NCBI GenBank assembly: GCA_026004495.1
Contig: BPJG01000001.1
Span: forward strand, 70,470-134,469
Origin: Candidatus Parcubacteria bacterium
Lineage (GTDB): Bacteria; Patescibacteriota; Minisyncoccia; UBA6257; HR35
Length of the DNA stretch: 64,000 nucleotides
Direction: 5' to 3'
In this document: one piece after another, positions 1 to 33,767 of the stretch
Layout of the letters: each line of letters opens with the position of its first letter
Numbering within the stretch: position 1 is the first letter of the stretch
Translations under genes and position numbers: made by a program
The notes under the pieces: model-generated
The model's input: the letters and a program-made list of their open reading frames with translations, nothing else
What the model was told of the DNA's origin: nothing
Database searches by the model: none

Positions 1-1
1 G

Positions 2-235
2 CTTCAAGGCTTAGCAGATGAAAGAAATGAATCAGTCAAAAAATTAATTAGTGAAGTAATTAGAAAATGTAAAGAAAAAGGAAAATATGTAGGAATTTGC
101 GGACAAGCACCAAGTGATTTTCCAGAAATTGTTGAATTATTGGTCAAAGAAGGAATTGAAAGTCTAAGTGTTAATAGCGATGTAGTGGTTAAAACGATTG
201 AAATGGTTAAAAAATTTGAAGATGAAAATAAATGA
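2..235 (+). CDS. PEP-utilising enzyme C-terminal domain (PEP synthase / pyruvate,phosphate dikinase family), 3' partial
   Basis: Absent from the ORF track because it has no start in the window. Frame 2 reads ...KCKEKGKYVGICGQAPSDFPEIVELLVKEGIESLSVNSDVVVKTIEMVKKFEDENK*. The GICGQ.PS.P...L...GI.S.SV region is typical of the C-terminal TIM-barrel of PpsA/PPDK. The TGA at 233-235 overlaps the eno start. Confidence 0.75.
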   Translation, partial: LQGLADERNESVKKLISEVIRKCKEKGKYVGICGQAPSDFPEIVELLVKEGIESLSVNSDVVVKTIEMVKKFEDENK

Positions 236-1502
236 TATAAAAGTAAATAAAATTTTAGACTCAAGAGGAGAATGGACAATTGATATTGAAATTGAAAGTG
301 AAGGAATAAAAGAAAAAGCCTCAATCCCTTCTGGAAAAAGTATTGGCTCTCATGAAGTTGTTTGTTTAGATTGTGAAAAAATTAAAAAGAACTTAGATGA
401 ATTGTTGAAAGATATAAAAAATAATGATTTTCAAAATCTAAAAGAATTAGATGAATTTTTAATTAAAAGAGCAGGGAAGAATAAAGAAAAATTAGGAGGT
501 AACTTTACTTTAGGAATTTCAATTAGTTTTGCTCGCGTTTTGGCTAAAAGCAAAAATTTGGAGTTGTTTGAATATTTAAAGAACGAATATGCTCTAATAA
601 TAGAAGATGAATTTAGACAAATACCAAGATTAATTTTAAATATTATTGGTGGTGGAGTACATTCTTTTAATAATTTAGATTTTCAGGAATATTGGTTGGT
701 GACGCAGAACTACGCTGAACTGACGCAGAACTACGCAGACAATAATAAAACGCAAACCAATGCGAACTATAAGCTAAATAACGCTAAATTTCAGGTGAAC
801 TTATCCGAAGGAGAAAATTATTATGAAACGCAAAGCGATAAGAACTTAATGCGACTCAAAGCAAATAAATATGAATTTCTTATTTTTTTAATCATAGAAA
901 TCATAAATATTATTAATCAACTTGAAAATAAACTACCTAAACCATTAGGAAGAAATGATGAAGGAGCATTTTGTACAAACTTTAGTGATGATTATGAACC
1001 ATTTTTATATTTAAAAGAAGTTAATAATTTTGAACTTGGAGCTGATATTGCCGCTAATCAAATAACAAAGGTAGTTAATTGGGAAAATGTTTATCGCAAA
1101 CTAAAAATTTTGGGTGTTAAATATTTAGAAGATCCTTATAGAGAAAATGAATTTGAAAAATTTGCTGAACTTCGAAAAGAAGGATTTAAAGTAATTGGCG
1201 ATGATTTAACAGTGACCAATATTGAAAGATTAAAAATTGCCTTAGATAAAAATTCTGTTGATGGTGTAATTGTTAAACCTAATCAAATTGGCACCATAAC
1301 TGAAGCATTTAATTTTGTTAAATTAGCCAAAACAAATAATTTATTTACAATTTTTTCTCATCGAAGTGGAGAAACTAATGATAATTGGATAATTGATTTA
1401 GGAATTGCTTTTGGAGCAGATTATTTTAAAATTGGTGTTCCTTTACAAGGCGAAAGAGTGGCAAAATATAATAGACTTTTAGAGATTTATGGTAAAATTT
1501 AA
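222..1502 (+). CDS. eno: Enolase (phosphopyruvate hydratase) carrying an in-frame repeat insertion
   Basis: N-terminus KILDSRGEWTIDIEIE...IPSGKSIGSHE. C-terminus EDPY...VIGDDLTVTN...VKPNQIGTITE...SHRSGETNDNWIIDL...GERVAKYNRLLEI. The track ORF starts at 198, but the ATG at 222 gives a typical enolase N-terminus and overlaps the upstream stop. Confidence 0.92.
   Translation: MKINDIKVNKILDSRGEWTIDIEIESEGIKEKASIPSGKSIGSHEVVCLDCEKIKKNLDELLKDIKNNDFQNLKELDEFLIKRAGKNKEKLGGNFTLGISISFARVLAKSKNLELFEYLKNEYALIIEDEFRQIPRLILNIIGGGVHSFNNLDFQEYWLVTQNYAELTQNYADNNKTQTNANYKLNNAKFQVNLSEGENYYETQSDKNLMRLKANKYEFLIFLIIEIINIINQLENKLPKPLGRNDEGAFCTNFSDDYEPFLYLKEVNNFELGADIAANQITKVVNWENVYRKLKILGVKYLEDPYRENEFEKFAELRKEGFKVIGDDLTVTNIERLKIALDKNSVDGVIVKPNQIGTITEAFNFVKLAKTNNLFTIFSHRSGETNDNWIIDLGIAFGADYFKIGVPLQGERVAKYNRLLEIYGKI
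701..862 (+). repeat. GC-richer repeat-arm insertion, in frame inside eno
   Basis: The DNA reads gacgcagaactacgctgaactgacgcagaactacgcagacaataataaaacgcaaaccaatgcgaactat... and translates TQNYAELTQNYADNNKTQTNANYK.... It sits after the conserved FQE(Y/F) enolase motif, where enolases normally continue directly. It shares a 40-50 nt core with 1965-2010 and 2551-2600. Confidence 0.7.
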
Positions 1503-1552
1503 TGATTTATATTAAAATTTAATTAAGGTCGAATTAAAAAAAATTTTAAAAA

Positions 1553-1951
1553 ATGACTTCAGATTATATTCTTTTACTTTCAAGAGTGATTTTAGGTCTT
1601 TATTTTTTATTTAGTGGTTTTGCTCATTTTAAAAATTTAAATATGATGTCGCAGTATGCTCAAAGTAAAAATGTGCCAGCTCCTAAATTGGCTGTTATTG
1701 TTACAGGTCTTTTACTTTTAGTTGGTGGTCTTTCAATTTTACTTGGTGCTTATATTCAAGTCGGGGTTTTAGCTTTAACAATTTTCTTTTTACCTGTTAG
1801 TTTTATGATGCATAATTTTTGGACTGTTCAAGATCCACAAATGAAGATGATGGAAATGATTAATTTTATGAAAAATATGGCTATCTGGGCAGGAGTTTTA
1901 GCTTTACTTTTTATCCCTCAGCCTTGGCCATTCAGTCTTAGTTTGTTCTAA
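1553..1951 (+). CDS. DoxX family membrane protein
   Basis: 132 aa with four predicted TM helices. The N-terminus LLLSRVILGLYFLFSGFAHF is typical of DoxX. Confidence 0.65.
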   Translation: MTSDYILLLSRVILGLYFLFSGFAHFKNLNMMSQYAQSKNVPAPKLAVIVTGLLLLVGGLSILLGAYIQVGVLALTIFFLPVSFMMHNFWTVQDPQMKMMEMINFMKNMAIWAGVLALLFIPQPWPFSLSLF

Positions 1952-1954
1952 TTT

Positions 1955-2063
1955 ACGGTTATAGACTAACGCAGACAATATTAAAACGCAAACTAATGCA
2001 AGCTGATGCGGCTAATGAAGGTATTCGCAACGGTTCGCGTGAAAGTTCGCATAGGTTCGCGAC
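1955..2063. repeat. Intergenic copy of the repeat-arm family containing both orientations
   Basis: ctaacgcagacaatattaaaacgcaaactaatgcaagctgatgcgg is followed by four gttcgc words (ggtattcgcaacggttcgcgtgaaagttcgcataggttcgcgac). gttcgc is the reverse complement of the gcgaac word in the arms. Confidence 0.65.
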
Positions 2064-2072
2064 AAATAAAAA

Positions 2073-3941
2073 ATGAAGATATTAATTTTAGGTGGAGGAT
2101 TTGGAGGTACTTATACTTTAAAACATTTGCATAAGTTTTTTCATAATAAGAAGAAAGTAAAATTGGTATTGGTAAATAAAAAGAATTATTTTATTTTTAC
2201 GCCTTTGCTTCATGAAGTCGCTACTGGTGGAGTTTCAATCGATAATGCTTTAGAACCTATAAGAGAAATTATTAAATGTTGCGATTTTGATTTTATCCAT
2301 GGAGAAGTTGAAAAAATTGATTTAGAAAATAAAGTTGTTTATATAAATAAAGAAAGAGAAAATTATAATGTTGATTACGATTATTTAGTTATTGCTTTAG
2401 GTTCAAAAACAAATTATTATAATATTACAGGCGCTAAAGAATTTACCTTTTCTTTAAAAACAGTTGATGATGCCATAAGGCTGAAAAATAGATTTGTTCA
2501 TATGTTTGAATTAGCGAGTGTAGCGCAGACCTGCGCAGACTACACGCAGACTAACGCAGACAATATTAAGACGCAGACTGATGCGAACTACACGCAGGCT
2601 GATGCAGGCAATAATGTAGTGCAGACTAATGCAGAAAACAACGAGAATTTTCTTTATGAAGATTTAAGCTATAAAATTATAGGAATAGCTTATAAAATTA
2701 AAAAGAATTTAGGATTGGGACATAAAGAAAAAGTTTATACGAATTCCCTTGAACTTGAACTTAAAAAAGAAAATATCATTTATAAAAGAGAGGAAAAAAT
2801 CAGCGTGGTATATGATGGAAAAATAGTAGGAAACTATATACCAGATTTTGTAATAGAGGATAAAATTATTGTGGAATTAAAAACACTCCCCTTAATAGAT
2901 GAGAAGACAAAAAAGCAAATCTGGAATTATTTAAAGGGAACTAAATATAGACTTGCAATTTTGATTAATTTTGGCAAGAAAGATGTGGAAATATCTAGGA
3001 TAATTTATGATAAAGCAAGAAATTCTAATAGTCAGCAAGAGTCTGCGTCCAGTCAGAAGGTTGATAATAATGAAAGTCTGCAAAAGTCCGCGTCCAGTCT
3101 GCAAAAGTCTGAGTCTAATAAATATTTAACTTTTGTCATTGTCGGAGGTGGAGCAACTGGAGTTGAACTTGCTGGTGAAATGAGTGATTTGTTTTATAAA
3201 ACATTTAGTAAATTATATTCATCAGATTTAATTTCACAAGTTAAAATAATTCTAATCGAAAAAGGCAAAGAATTAATTCCTCAATTTTCTCCAAAATTAA
3301 GACAAAAAGCACTTGAAAGGTTAAAAAAATTAAAAGTTGATATTAGATTGGAAAGAGGAGTAATTGAAGTTGGTGAAGATTTTATTAAACTTGATGATGG
3401 TAATGTTATCGAAACAAAAACAGTTATTTGGGCAGCAGGAGTTGAAACTAATTTACCAGAAATTATTGGCAAGGTTGAAAAGGATAATAAAGGAAGATTA
3501 GTTGTAAATGAATATCTACAAGTAAAAAAGAAAATAGATATGTTAAGTCAGCAAGAATCTGCGTTAAGTCAGCAAGAGTCTGCGTACGATAATGTTTTTG
3601 CCATTGGTGATGTTTGTTGTTTTATTCAAGACCAAAAGCCTTTGCCACAATTAGCTCAAGTTGCAGTTAGACAAGTAAAAACAGTTTCTTTAAATATTAA
3701 AAATTCGATTGAAAATAAGACTTTACAAAAATTTGCTTACAAACATACTGGTGATTTAATTTCAGTTGGTAGATTTTATGCCCTAGGAGAAATTAAAGGA
3801 GTTGAATTTTCAGGTTTAATTAGTTGGTTTATTTGGAAAGGAGTTTATTTAAGCAAAATTATTTCTTTTCGAGATCAAATCAAAACATTTATTGATTGGC
3901 TTTTGAATTTATTTTTACCCAGAGATATTACTGAATTATAA
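2073..3941 (+). CDS. ndh: Type II NADH dehydrogenase (NDH-2, FAD-dependent pyridine nucleotide-disulfide oxidoreductase) with two in-frame insertions
   Basis: MKILILGGGFGGTY (first GxGxxG). FVIVGGGATGVELAGEM (second Rossmann motif). VFAIGDVC near the C-terminus. At 622 aa it is about 200 aa longer than expected because of the insertions at 2518-3120 and 3543-3584. Confidence 0.85.
   Translation: MKILILGGGFGGTYTLKHLHKFFHNKKKVKLVLVNKKNYFIFTPLLHEVATGGVSIDNALEPIREIIKCCDFDFIHGEVEKIDLENKVVYINKERENYNVDYDYLVIALGSKTNYYNITGAKEFTFSLKTVDDAIRLKNRFVHMFELASVAQTCADYTQTNADNIKTQTDANYTQADAGNNVVQTNAENNENFLYEDLSYKIIGIAYKIKKNLGLGHKEKVYTNSLELELKKENIIYKREEKISVVYDGKIVGNYIPDFVIEDKIIVELKTLPLIDEKTKKQIWNYLKGTKYRLAILINFGKKDVEISRIIYDKARNSNSQQESASSQKVDNNESLQKSASSLQKSESNKYLTFVIVGGGATGVELAGEMSDLFYKTFSKLYSSDLISQVKIILIEKGKELIPQFSPKLRQKALERLKKLKVDIRLERGVIEVGEDFIKLDDGNVIETKTVIWAAGVETNLPEIIGKVEKDNKGRLVVNEYLQVKKKIDMLSQQESALSQQESAYDNVFAIGDVCCFIQDQKPLPQLAQVAVRQVKTVSLNIKNSIENKTLQKFAYKHTGDLISVGRFYALGEIKGVEFSGLISWFIWKGVYLSKIISFRDQIKTFIDWLLNLFLPRDITEL
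2518..3120 (+). mobile_element. In-frame insertion cassette: 5' repeat arms, GxxExxY-family PD-(D/E)XK domain, then 3' inverted repeat arms
   Basis: The core is YEDLSYKIIGIAYKIKKNLGLGHKEKVYTNSLELELKKENIIYKREEKISVVYDGKIVGNYIPDFVIEDKIIVELKTLPLIDEKTKKQIWNYLKGTKYRLAILINFGKK, which is GxxExxY-like with the D...E.K nuclease motif. The 5' side carries repeated gcgcagac/acgcagac words (2521-2640). The 3' side carries gtctgcgt/gtctgca words (3030-3115), their reverse complement. The cassette lies between ...FELAS and KYLTFVIVGGG of NDH-2. Confidence 0.75.
3543..3584 (+). repeat. Solo tandem 21-nt repeat arms inserted in frame in ndh
   Basis: ttaagtcagcaagaatctgcg is followed by ttaagtcagcaagagtctgcg, translating LSQQESA LSQQESA. 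The word agtcagcaagagtctgcgt is identical to 3030-3048 in the large cassette. Confidence 0.8.
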
Positions 3942-3949
3942 TTAAATTA

Positions 3950-5386
3950 ATGGAGCCTCTTTATCTATTTAACACCCTAAGTCGAAAAAAAGAAAAATTT
4001 AAACCTTTGAAAGATAAGATAGTAACGATGTATAATTGTGGACCGACTGTTTATGAAAGACCACATATTGGTAATTTAAGAGCCTATATTTTTGCTGATA
4101 CCCTAAGAAGAACGCTTGAATACAATAGCTATAAGGTCAAACAGATTATAAATATTACTGATGTTGGGCATTTAACTTCTGATGCTGATACTGGTGAAGA
4201 TAAAATTGAAAAAACTGCTCGAAAAAAAAGAAAAACTGCCTGGGAAATCTCTCACTATTTTGAAAAACTTTTTAAGGAAGATATTAAAAAATTAAATATT
4301 AAAAATCCTTTTAAGTTTCCTCGAGCAACTCAACATATAAAAGAAATAATTGAGCTTATAAAGATTCTAGAAAAAAAAGGCTATACTTACAAAATTTCTG
4401 ATGGTATCTATTTTGATACTTCTAAATTTAAAAATTATGGTGAATTAGCTGGCTTAAAGAAAAAAAAATTCATTGCCGGTGCTAGGGTTGAAATAAATCC
4501 TGAAAAAATAAATCCAACTGATTTTGCTTTGTGGAAATTCTCGCCTAAAGATATTAAAAGACAAATGGAATGGAAAAGTCCGTGGGGTATCGGTTTTCCT
4601 GGTTGGCATATTGAATGTTCAGCAATGTCAATGAAATATTTAGGTAAAACAATTGATATTCATACTGGGGGTATAGATCATATTAATATTCATCATACAA
4701 ATGAAATTGCTCAATCAGAAGCAGCAACTGGTAAAAAATTTGTTAACTATTGGCTTCATGTAAATTTTTTAAAAGTTGAAGGAGAAAAAATGTCAAAAAG
4801 TTTAGGAAATATTGTTACCCTAGAAGATATTGAGAAAAAAGGTTTTCAACCGCTTGCTTTCAAATATTTAGTTTTAACCTCCCATTATCGTTCAGAAATG
4901 AATTTCACTTGGCAAGCAATGGAATCAGCTCAAAAAGCATATAATTTAATTTTAGAAACAATCTCCAGTTTTAATCTTTCTATTAATTTGTATAAATCAC
5001 TATCTATCAACAGACAACTTTCAATTCTACATAGCTCTGCATCTAGGGAAATATTAAATATTATTAATGATGATCTTGATACTCCTCGATTAATTGCTAA
5101 ATTATGGGAAGTTTTAAGACTAAATGAAAATTTAAAATTTAAAAAAATTTTTGTTTTAAAAGCTGATAAAATTTTAGGATTGGGATTCAAAGAATTTTTA
5201 GTAAAACAAAAGTTACCAGCCAAAATTAAAAATAAAGTATTATTGAGAGAAAAGCTGAGAAAAGAAGGGAAATGGCAAGAAGCTGATAAGATTAGAGAAA
5301 AAATATTAAAAGCTGGTTATAAAATTGAAGATACTAAACAAGGCCCAATTATTAAAAAAGTCGTTATTAAAAAATTAATAAAATAA
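3950..5386 (+). CDS. cysS: Cysteinyl-tRNA synthetase
   Basis: MYNCGPTVYERPHIGNLRAY (HIGH), GWHIECSAM, KMSKSLGN (KMSKS), DDLDTP. Confidence 0.92.
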   Translation: MEPLYLFNTLSRKKEKFKPLKDKIVTMYNCGPTVYERPHIGNLRAYIFADTLRRTLEYNSYKVKQIINITDVGHLTSDADTGEDKIEKTARKKRKTAWEISHYFEKLFKEDIKKLNIKNPFKFPRATQHIKEIIELIKILEKKGYTYKISDGIYFDTSKFKNYGELAGLKKKKFIAGARVEINPEKINPTDFALWKFSPKDIKRQMEWKSPWGIGFPGWHIECSAMSMKYLGKTIDIHTGGIDHINIHHTNEIAQSEAATGKKFVNYWLHVNFLKVEGEKMSKSLGNIVTLEDIEKKGFQPLAFKYLVLTSHYRSEMNFTWQAMESAQKAYNLILETISSFNLSINLYKSLSINRQLSILHSSASREILNIINDDLDTPRLIAKLWEVLRLNENLKFKKIFVLKADKILGLGFKEFLVKQKLPAKIKNKVLLREKLRKEGKWQEADKIREKILKAGYKIEDTKQGPIIKKVVIKKLIK

Positions 5387-33428: not shown

Positions 33429-33456
33429 TTGACAAATTTTTTTATTGAGGTATAAT
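33429..33456 (+). promoter_or_regulatory. Consensus sigma70-type promoter of cassette 1
   Basis: TTGACA (33429-33434), a 16-nt spacer, then TATAAT (33451-33456). Confidence 0.6.
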
Positions 33457-33462
33457 TATTAT

Positions 33463-33526
33463 CGGCTCTAACCCCTATGTCCTCGTCTCTGATATGGAAT
33501 GGAAGCTCCTGCTTCCATTTTTTTTT
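33463..33526 (+). ncRNA. Candidate small RNA 1: 38-nt unique segment plus intrinsic terminator
   Basis: The unique core is cggctctaacccctatgtcctcgtctctgatatggaat. It is followed by the hairpin atggaagc-tcct-gcttccat and T9 (33518-33526). The start is estimated from the -10 box. Confidence 0.5.
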
Positions 33527-33576
33527 ATTCGTGTATTAAATTTAGATTTTCATGATATAATAATTAAAAAAATATC

Positions 33577-33604
33577 TTGACAAATTTTTTTATTGAGGTA
33601 TAAT
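33577..33604 (+). promoter_or_regulatory. Consensus sigma70-type promoter of cassette 2
   Basis: TTGACA (33577-33582), a 16-nt spacer, then TATAAT (33599-33604). The 35-nt block is identical to cassette 1. Confidence 0.6.
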
Positions 33605-33610
33605 TATTAT

Positions 33611-33672
33611 TAGTCTTGCCATAACCGTATCCGAATCACCTAAATTTGGAAGCTCCTGCTTCCATTTTTTTT
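33611..33672 (+). ncRNA. Candidate small RNA 2: 37-nt unique segment plus the same intrinsic terminator
   Basis: The unique core is tagtcttgccataaccgtatccgaatcacctaaattt. It is followed by the hairpin tggaagc-tcct-gcttcca and T8. Confidence 0.5.
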
Positions 33673-33767
33673 ATTCGTGTATTAAATTTAGATTTACATG
33701 ATATAATAATTAAAAAATAAAACTTTTTATGTTTTTAAATAAATTTTATAATATAAAAAAATAGAAA

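Follow-up and report, generated by a model that had tools for sequence, protein, structure and literature searches.

An in-frame segment of a Parcubacteria enolase gene as a probable relic of a nuclease-bearing cassette family

The enolase gene (eno) of the Candidatus Parcubacteria bacterium metagenome-assembled genome KatS3mg094 (24% GC; source contig 634,165 bp) carries an in-frame, repeat-bearing insert, which we analysed within a stretch of 64,000 nucleotides (nt), referred to here as the window. At this locus the 3′ end of ppsA is followed by eno (222-1502), DoxX (1553-1951), ndh (2073-3941) and cysS (3950-5386), and this gene order is also found in relatives. The two genes that host copies of the repeat and the parts of the enolase insert are as follows.

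222-1502, forward strand: enolase gene (eno), 426 amino acids (aa), identical to GIW65548.1; Pfam Enolase_N 2e-21, Enolase_C 2.9e-37
702-872, forward strand: variable segment of the enolase gene (site B), 57 codons T161-Y217, from anchor-to-anchor DNA comparison
702-775, forward strand: left-arm homologue in this segment, CGC(A/T)GA motifs at 703, 713, 724 and 734 (spacing 10, 11, 10), then AATAATAAAACGCAAACCAATGCGAACT; GC 43%
776-872, forward strand: AT-richer rest of the insert, in which 820-865 weakly repeats 742-787 in direct orientation (67% identity)
2073-3941, forward strand: ndh, the name used here for an NDH-2-type oxidoreductase gene; 622 aa, identical to GIW65550.1, deposited as a hypothetical protein

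The identity of the enolase is confirmed by PF03952 and PF00113, which both exceed their cut-offs, and its TIGR01060 score of 215 bits, below the 300-bit cut-off, marks the window enzyme as a divergent subtype. The insert was delimited by alignment of 24 enolases of the clade, in which the motifs DFQEYWL, GRNDEGAF and SHRSGETND around it are invariant, and by comparison of the DNA between the DFQEYWL and GRNDEGAF anchors. Insert-free orthologues have three residues at this site (SKN or SKE; HR35 P0004, P0005, P0014, P0026, P0105 and P0120), and the net in-frame gain in the window is 54 codons (162 nt). An earlier, sequence-only reading of the window had placed about 55 extra codons after the motif FQE(Y/F), at 701-862; the size agrees with our count of 57 residues against three, and the span was right within a few codons. 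It had also described an open frame, as we find (no stop in the host frame, five and eight in the other two sense frames), and an insert GC-richer than its gene. The latter holds for the arm (43% at 702-775, against 26% in the remaining gene; 38% over the whole insert), whereas the 3′ part at 776-866 reaches only 33%.

Positions 702-743 consist of two tandem 21-nt units, and Tandem Repeats Finder (TRF) assigns a period of 10 to the 702-775 arm. No inverted (right) arm lies within 776-872. The insert contains no open reading frame (ORF), and Pfam and TIGRFAM searches reveal enolase domains only in the protein. The fold of the insert is not significant compared with shuffles (z -0.37), and an RNA hairpin was rejected on this ground. 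Also rejected was the idea that 776-870 is the remnant of a nuclease ORF, its local alignment to the interior of the ndh cassette described below being not significant (score 14 versus 11.9 ± 1.8 for shuffles, 40 of 300 of which scored as high). In the AlphaFold2 (AF2) model of the enolase (pTM 0.82), the insert sits between a strand (154-161) carrying FQEYWLV and a helix (204-237); residues 165-213 have pLDDT values below 50 (about 30), and the remainder is confident. The insert is predicted to form a disordered surface loop, as expected if it is tolerated. Predicted peptide stretches in the inserts include TQNYAELTQNYADNNK and QVNLSEGENYYETQSDK, and FQVNLSEGENYYETQSDK is one of the predicted tryptic peptides from the enolase insert.

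In the arms of the repeat, a CGCAGA(C)-type motif (for this family, ACGCAGAC) recurs in an array with alternating spacings of 10 and 11 nt, so that two motifs span 21 nt, or seven codons. The octamer ACGCAGAC occurs seven times in the window versus 0.02 expected (350-fold over-represented), always within 733-3585. In a within-window search, 703-774 matches 2524-2595 (76% identity over 72 nt, E 3e-12) and 733-768 matches 1969-2004 (89% identity over 36 nt, E 2e-7), in support of the homology of the enolase core to 1965-2010 and 2551-2590 seen earlier. The first 74 nt of the enolase insert align in register with the intergenic copy at 1963-2066 and with the left arm in ndh, and this homology, which includes the non-repetitive distal part, makes the enolase copy a member of the ACGCAGAC-arm family. 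Altogether, five left arms can be aligned in register, starting at their first base: those of the window enolase, ndh and the intergenic copy, that of the enolase in the related locus L083, and one at the 3′ end of rbfA in L167, an unrelated metagenome contig. Motif-array scans of the 64 kb found no such arrays beyond the eno-ndh elements, apart from a tRNA. The other copies in the window are the following.

1963-2066, no strand assigned: intergenic copy in the DoxX-ndh spacer, left arm of ACGCAGAC/ACGCAAAC motifs and right arm of GTTCGCG/GTTCGCA motifs; no ORF; imperfect hairpin
2523-2639, forward strand: ndh cassette left arm, translating as AQTCADYTQTNADNIKTQTDANY...; CGCAGA motifs at 2524, 2534, 2545, 2555 and 2572; GC 50%
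2640-3020, forward strand: GxxExxY / PDDEXK_3 domain in ndh, in frame; PF13366 8.7e-34, TIGR04256 4e-35; GC 26%, as in the host genome
3021-3116, forward strand: ndh cassette right arm, with motifs reverse-complementary to those of the left arm; GTC(T/A/C)G(C/A) at 3031, 3041, 3052, 3076, 3086, 3097 and 3107; translating as NSNSQQESASSQK...SLQKSES
3540-3584, forward strand: second ndh remnant, two 21-nt units in right-arm orientation (MLSQQESALSQQESA); TRF period 21, 95% matches

The ndh protein (Pfam Pyr_redox_2 7e-42, NDH2_C 8e-9) hosts both this cassette and the second remnant. At 2523-3116, an ORF matching PF13366 and TIGR04256 lies between a left arm and an inverted right arm; the arms form inverted repeats of 36-39 nt that are 72-75% complementary, and the whole cassette folds better than shuffles (z -3.66). 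Both the ORF and the inverted right arm are missing from the enolase copy; an inverted right arm is also present in the window intergenic copy and in the L083 enolase insert. In a relative, L086 (GCA_026004535.1), the ndh orthologue (467 aa, 89% identical) has an empty cassette site, reading FEIGSLYPEKV|NKYLTF versus FELASV[198 codons]NKYLTF in the window, with a left junction that is ambiguous by about 5 codons. At the site of the second remnant the same orthologue holds a 53-residue insert with left and right arms, and the DoxX-ndh spacer of L086 holds a hairpin of another motif, ACGGAA/TTCCGT. The repeat forms the terminal arm of a cassette that, when complete, codes for a GxxExxY PD-(D/E)XK nuclease, a point that we add to the first reading.

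The residues E30, Y33, E79 and K81 are invariant in the GxxExxY family, and G and D are nearly so; all are present in the ndh domain, whose GxxExxY, D and ExK motifs are intact and whose AF2 model has a pLDDT of 93.6. A Foldseek search with the GxxExxY model gave weak matches (TM 0.4-0.57) to Cas4 SSO0001, lambda-exonuclease-like proteins, the homing endonuclease I-Bth0305I, tRNA-splicing endonucleases and Holliday-junction resolvases. PADLOC returned no match, and PHROGs one weak 'endonuclease' match. As a separate observation, ndh is wholly missing between DoxX and cysS in HR35 (L081 11141-12976) and in the L083 lineage (L083 6116-8015; compare window 1553-5386); it is thus a variable gene in the clade and probably not essential.

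Among the matches listed in a search for related loci are close relatives, about 6 of them in genomes and about 15 in metagenomes. The contigs sampled include some from KatS3mg097 (AP024681, a complete genome), GCA_026004535.1 (BPJI01000001) and HR35 (BEIL01000004). The close enolase homologues listed are 367-659 aa long, and insertions in them concentrate at three hot spots: site A after EYLxxEY, site B after FQEYWL, where the window insert lies, and site C after FLYLKE. At least 8 extra residues are present at site B in 71 of the 93 homologues with both anchor motifs among 120 listed (range 0-63 extra). A whole GxxExxY domain is embedded in frame in 14 of these 120 enolases, 12 times at site C and twice at site A, and several such enolases are annotated 'GxxExxY protein' by the Joint Genome Institute (JGI).

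Site B itself is occupied by different forms. L083 has a clear 117-nt hairpin of the same type as the window intergenic copy, with three ACGCAGAC followed by four GTTCGCG; L086 has 45 nt of the same arm; L092 and L093 have ACGCGGAT arrays, and in L091 and L095 such arrays are followed by an ACGAAT/ATTCG hairpin. The inserts of the window, L083 and L086 are alike at their 5′ start and at their 3′ end (agaactta...), those of L083 and L086 being shorter, and this likeness at both ends suggests a single ancestral insertion whose length afterwards fell or grew in multiples of three. The enolase copy of the window is an old relic and not a fresh insertion; the L083 and L086 lineages share it, trimmed in different ways. 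Outside the enolase locus, a left arm of this architecture extends into the 3′ end of the L167 rbfA gene; next come a free-standing GxxExxY gene, with 64% identity to the ndh domain, and then a right arm of GTCCGCGT/GTCTGCGT.

Site C offers two further observations. In L086 (10690-10825) it holds an ORF-less array of CCGGAT/ATCCGG that translates as LPGYKPD-type repeats, which indicates that several arm families coexist in one gene. In L093 (4570-4750) the right flank of the site-C cassette holds an extra, nested ACGAAT/ATTCG hairpin, which suggests that elements insert into each other's arms.

The intragenic elements are constrained by the reading frame. In tblastn comparisons of close loci with the insert-free HR35 enolase as query, both parts of the enolase gene lie in one frame in 7 of 7 genes split by inserts. 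The intragenic copies examined are open in the host frame only, most of the other frames containing 5-10 stops. Of the intergenic hairpins, three were checked: every sense frame contains stops in L086 and L167, and one sense frame is open in the window copy. In this window copy (1960-2066) one sense and one antisense frame are free of stops, and the frame joins neither DoxX nor ndh; it may formerly have been coding, or be open by chance.

Codon comparison of four cassette-bearing enolases yielded dN/dS values of 0.11-0.13 for the embedded GxxExxY domain, 0.04-0.16 for the enolase core and 0.4-1.4 for the arms; at site B the values are 0.5-0.7 where enough codons align. The embedded nuclease domain is under purifying selection and the arms evolve almost neutrally, which means that the nuclease is kept as a protein in the host frame, while the arm peptides need only stay open. 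Between L092 and L093, the enolase cores are 95-97% identical (dS ~0.17), compared with 52% identity (dS 2.3) for their site-C cassettes, and the arm motifs of these differ as well (CCGAAT versus CACGAAT). This position has undergone the exchange of an entire cassette, which is the strongest evidence for mobility.

We propose, with a probability of about 0.7, that the enolase segment 702-872 is a decayed, arm-only relic of a selfish GxxExxY nuclease-cassette family, kept in frame. Complete members have a GxxExxY PD-(D/E)XK nuclease gene between a left arm and an inverted, complementary right arm. In this hot-spring Parcubacteria lineage, such cassettes and their ORF-less hairpin derivatives sit between genes as well as inside housekeeping genes, and the intragenic ones would persist only with the host frame open; translation would turn their arms into hydrophilic, disordered linkers of surface loops and make the nuclease as an inserted domain. 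The enolase copy would have entered the loop just past the FQEYW strand in an ancestor common to the L083 and L086 lineages, and then have lost its right arm and any ORF that it may have had. Its length would have changed through 21-nt slippage and in-frame indels, and it would now be an immobile, translated passenger, kept in frame because enolase must work. Spread was presumably started by the nuclease, via homing-like repair of a double-strand break after cleavage or via hairpin-directed recombination; local gene conversion is a further possible mode.

Several points weigh against this proposal. All five window copies lie within 3 kb (700-3590), and local gene conversion among neighbours could explain this clustering as well as transposition does. 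Neither the ndh nor the enolase junctions show a target-site duplication or a precise excision footprint, and the intergenic hairpin 1963-2066 folds no better than shuffles of the same composition (z -0.03). The nuclease activity of the GxxExxY domain is a prediction only, the structural matches being weak (TM 0.4-0.57), and a search of PDB sequences with the domain found no relative. The enolase copy is without a right arm, and its 3′ half is without detectable relation to the cassette; that it began as a whole cassette or hairpin is suggested by its relatives, mainly by the hairpin at the same site in L083. The presence of the insert in the mature enolase, finally, is a point that we infer.

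The sequence-only reading had argued for a mobile repeat that is tolerated only when translatable, and against local slippage. This is supported by unlinked sites with the same arm architecture (site B of enolase, the spacer between DoxX and ndh, site 1 of ndh and, in L167, the 3′ end of rbfA), by sites that are filled or empty among close relatives and by openness in the host frame alone, with the refinement that 21-nt slippage also adds length (702-743). A history of slippage alone would make the insert an ordinary low-complexity expansion by local 21-nt replication slippage, and its likeness to sequences elsewhere convergent simple sequence. The two tandem units at 702-743, TRF periods of 10 to 21 nt in all arms and the continuous variation in site-B length (0-63 extra residues among the homologues listed) agree with such an origin, yet the similarity reaches past the tandem unit into the non-repetitive stretch AATA(A/T)TAAAACGCAAAC(C/T)AATGCGAACT, which is common to the ndh and intergenic copies. 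The shared 72-nt stretch, the same arm architecture flanking a nuclease gene in another genome and the confinement of the over-represented octamer to these elements largely refute slippage as the sole origin, which we regard as highly improbable. Ectopic gene conversion within the 3-kb eno-DoxX-ndh block, with a real repeat family and the nuclease as incidental cargo, accounts for the position of all five copies of the 64 kb at 700-3590 and for the lack of target-site duplications. It does not account for the arm family and a related nuclease at the unrelated rbfA locus of another genome, for whole cassettes swapped at enolase site C between nearly identical hosts, or for a nuclease that is under purifying selection and consistently arm-bracketed across phyla, and we give it a low probability.

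Removal of the insert and of complete cassettes before the mature protein is formed, either from RNA (as in rRNA intervening sequences or a bulge-helix-bulge intron) or in the manner of an intein, would be favoured by the pairing of complete-cassette arms, which brings the host flanks together, and by the weak match of the predicted GxxExxY fold to tRNA-splicing endonucleases, among many PD-(D/E)XK proteins. Intron-encoded ORFs can, moreover, be read in frame with the upstream exon. However, the host frame is the only open one in both arms and in the ORF-less copies, a restriction that RNA excision does not need, and the enolase copy has neither a right arm nor a significant fold. An Rfam scan of the window at gathering thresholds found four tRNAs only, with no intron match, and a permissive scan of 1-4200 (E up to 1) added a chance miRNA match (E 0.36). 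No Hint or Intein_splicing match was found in enolase or ndh, and the junctions, V|TQN...NKY|EF and V|AQT...SES|NK, have the form V|T...Y|E rather than Cys/Ser...HN|Cys/Ser/Thr. With arms and ORF-less copies held open, no intron models and no intein features, removal at the RNA or protein level is unlikely. A search for strand asymmetry of folding as a clue to an RNA-level function likewise gave nothing consistent. The insert might instead have been recruited from repeat DNA as a regulatory or moonlighting surface loop that benefits the host. Enolase does moonlight as a surface or binding protein in other bacteria, and the insert is kept in frame in several lineages; against this, close relatives including HR35 lack it entirely, inserts at the same site differ among lineages in length and motif, and the peptides are near-neutral (dN/dS 0.5-0.7 at site B, 0.4-1.4 in the arms) and the insert predicted to be disordered. 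A beneficial loop is accordingly improbable.

The decayed-relic proposal also bears on the GxxExxY family at large, whose function is recorded as unknown (PMC3424549). A profile search with the cassette domain gave 1,777 matches at E 1e-8 or better, and the best 120 are all free-standing proteins of 121-211 aa with PF13366 as the sole Pfam domain. These domain and profile searches listed free-standing genes only and missed even the embedded copies used to build the profile; the in-frame GxxExxY domain inside enolase or ndh was seen only in this hot-spring Parcubacteria clade. Each of the six free-standing GxxExxY genes that we examined lies between inverted repeats built from related CG(N)AAT-type motifs (CACGAAT, CGCGAAT, CGCTAAT and TTAGCGGA), with bracketing scores mostly in the top 0.2-5% of 1,921 control ORFs. 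Examples from lineages of the candidate phyla radiation (CPR; L168, L171 and L172), from Verrucomicrobiota (L174) and from Lewinellaceae (L176) sit tightly between housekeeping genes of the same strand. In the Verrucomicrobiota example the gene lies within a perfect 27-nt inverted repeat, TTAACCACGGAACACACGAAATACACG, at 952-978 and 1383-1409. The arm-ORF-arm architecture may be a general property of the family. We further suggest, tentatively and at less than even odds, that GxxExxY genes within phased inverted motif arrays are widespread, undescribed, nuclease-driven mobile cassettes across phyla, which in thermophilic Parcubacteria have come to reside in essential genes as 'pseudo-inteins', translated but non-splicing; at the DNA level the arms would be the substrate for mobility, and at the peptide level flexible linkers by which domain insertion becomes tolerable, and the enolase segment would be one fossil of this process. 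Literature searches on GxxExxY/PF13366 and on in-frame or palindromic repeats in CPR/Patescibacteria yielded no description of such cassettes, and the exact arm core CGCAGACAAYAWTAARACGCA had no match in the contigs of species-representative genomes, among which the source genome is not included.

The closest analogue in behaviour is provided by the Rickettsia palindromic elements (RPEs), which are about 150 bp long and fall into ten families, each with a conserved peptide, no protein-coding form being mentioned (Ogata et al. 2000 Science 290:347, as summarised in PMC10969869). Like the window copies, they are short, palindromic, selfish repeats of a small AT-rich genome that lie in frame in unrelated housekeeping genes as well as between genes, are read through, and are believed to be tolerated in surface loops. 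They differ in that the window arms are arrays of 6-8-nt motifs at 10/11-nt spacing whose peptides are not conserved, and in that the complete form carries a nuclease gene. Intein homing endonucleases resemble the cassettes in having a nuclease ORF in frame in conserved housekeeping genes, at a recurrent site, with replacement in near-identical hosts, and I-Bth0305I-type PD-(D/E)XK homing enzymes share the fold of the window nuclease at the level of a weak structural match. In contrast to inteins, the cassettes have no Hint domain or intein junction residues, and the insertion apparently stays in the protein; they are flanked by inverted DNA repeats, which inteins are without, and the arm family occurs at several sites instead of homing strictly to one.

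[quoted passage not shown] REPs lie outside genes, and their RAYTs belong to the HUH/Y1 transposases; MITEs derive from transposase-encoding insertion sequence (IS) elements and usually make target-site duplications. The protein of the present cassettes is a GxxExxY PD-(D/E)XK domain instead, and copies are intragenic and translated; inverted arms are present, no duplication is visible at the ndh or enolase junctions, and the coding partner is not a recognised transposase. Inverted or dyad-symmetric DNA inside the translated sequence of AT-rich genomes is a feature shared with coding palindromes, PARCELs and yeast GC clusters. The GC clusters of the yeast mitochondrial gene var1 form GC-rich islands within AT-rich DNA. 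Both arms of the coding palindromes in Nematomorpha mitochondria are read as protein, as here, although those arms encode conserved protein parts under amino-acid selection (PMC6649704). PARCELs, known from Mollicutes, are 25-residue amphipathic repeats in ORFs without assigned function, many with membrane-targeting sequences (PMC2996958). None of these three has been reported with a nuclease ORF between arms. With the free-standing GxxExxY proteins, finally, the ndh- and enolase-embedded domains share clear membership of the family TIGR04256 / PF13366 PDDEXK_3, and the free-standing genes examined likewise lie between inverted arrays of related motifs.

Three side observations concern the surroundings. 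The PEP synthase/PPDK-like gene upstream of enolase encodes 1228 aa in HR35 (L081 6328-10014), with faint intein and LAGLIDADG Pfam matches, and 790-796 aa in L083 and L086, so that one lineage appears to carry a classical intein in the same neighbourhood. Enolases that are 62-64% identical to the window enzyme are deposited under Candidatus Aenigmatarchaeota (DPANN archaea; P0038 and P0053), and could reflect cross-domain transfer of the divergent subtype or mis-binning. Elsewhere in the window, at 33430-33700, there are two tandem units about 147 nt apart. Each combines a sigma70-like promoter (ttgacaaattttttattgaggtataat) with a GC-richer body of about 55 nt, different in the two units, and with a terminator-like hairpin that is identical in both (ggaagc-tcc-tgcttcc, at 33501-33516 and 33648-33663) and is followed by a T-run. 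The units resemble two small RNA genes, and neither has an Rfam match.

In-frame selfish palindromes have hitherto been seen as a curiosity of Rickettsia and a few other lineages, and the case described here broadens this to CPR/Patescibacteria, in a lineage in which the nuclease-bearing parent element is still visible. Some of the lineage-specific, low-complexity insertions of CPR housekeeping proteins may have such an origin. The case is also a warning to annotators, the 622-aa ndh product being filed as a 'hypothetical protein' and related enolases being labelled 'GxxExxY protein'. The natural insertion of full domains into enzyme loops, at three sites of enolase and one of the NDH-2-type gene, is useful to protein engineering, and the large, uncharacterised GxxExxY/PDDEXK_3 family gains a concrete candidate role.

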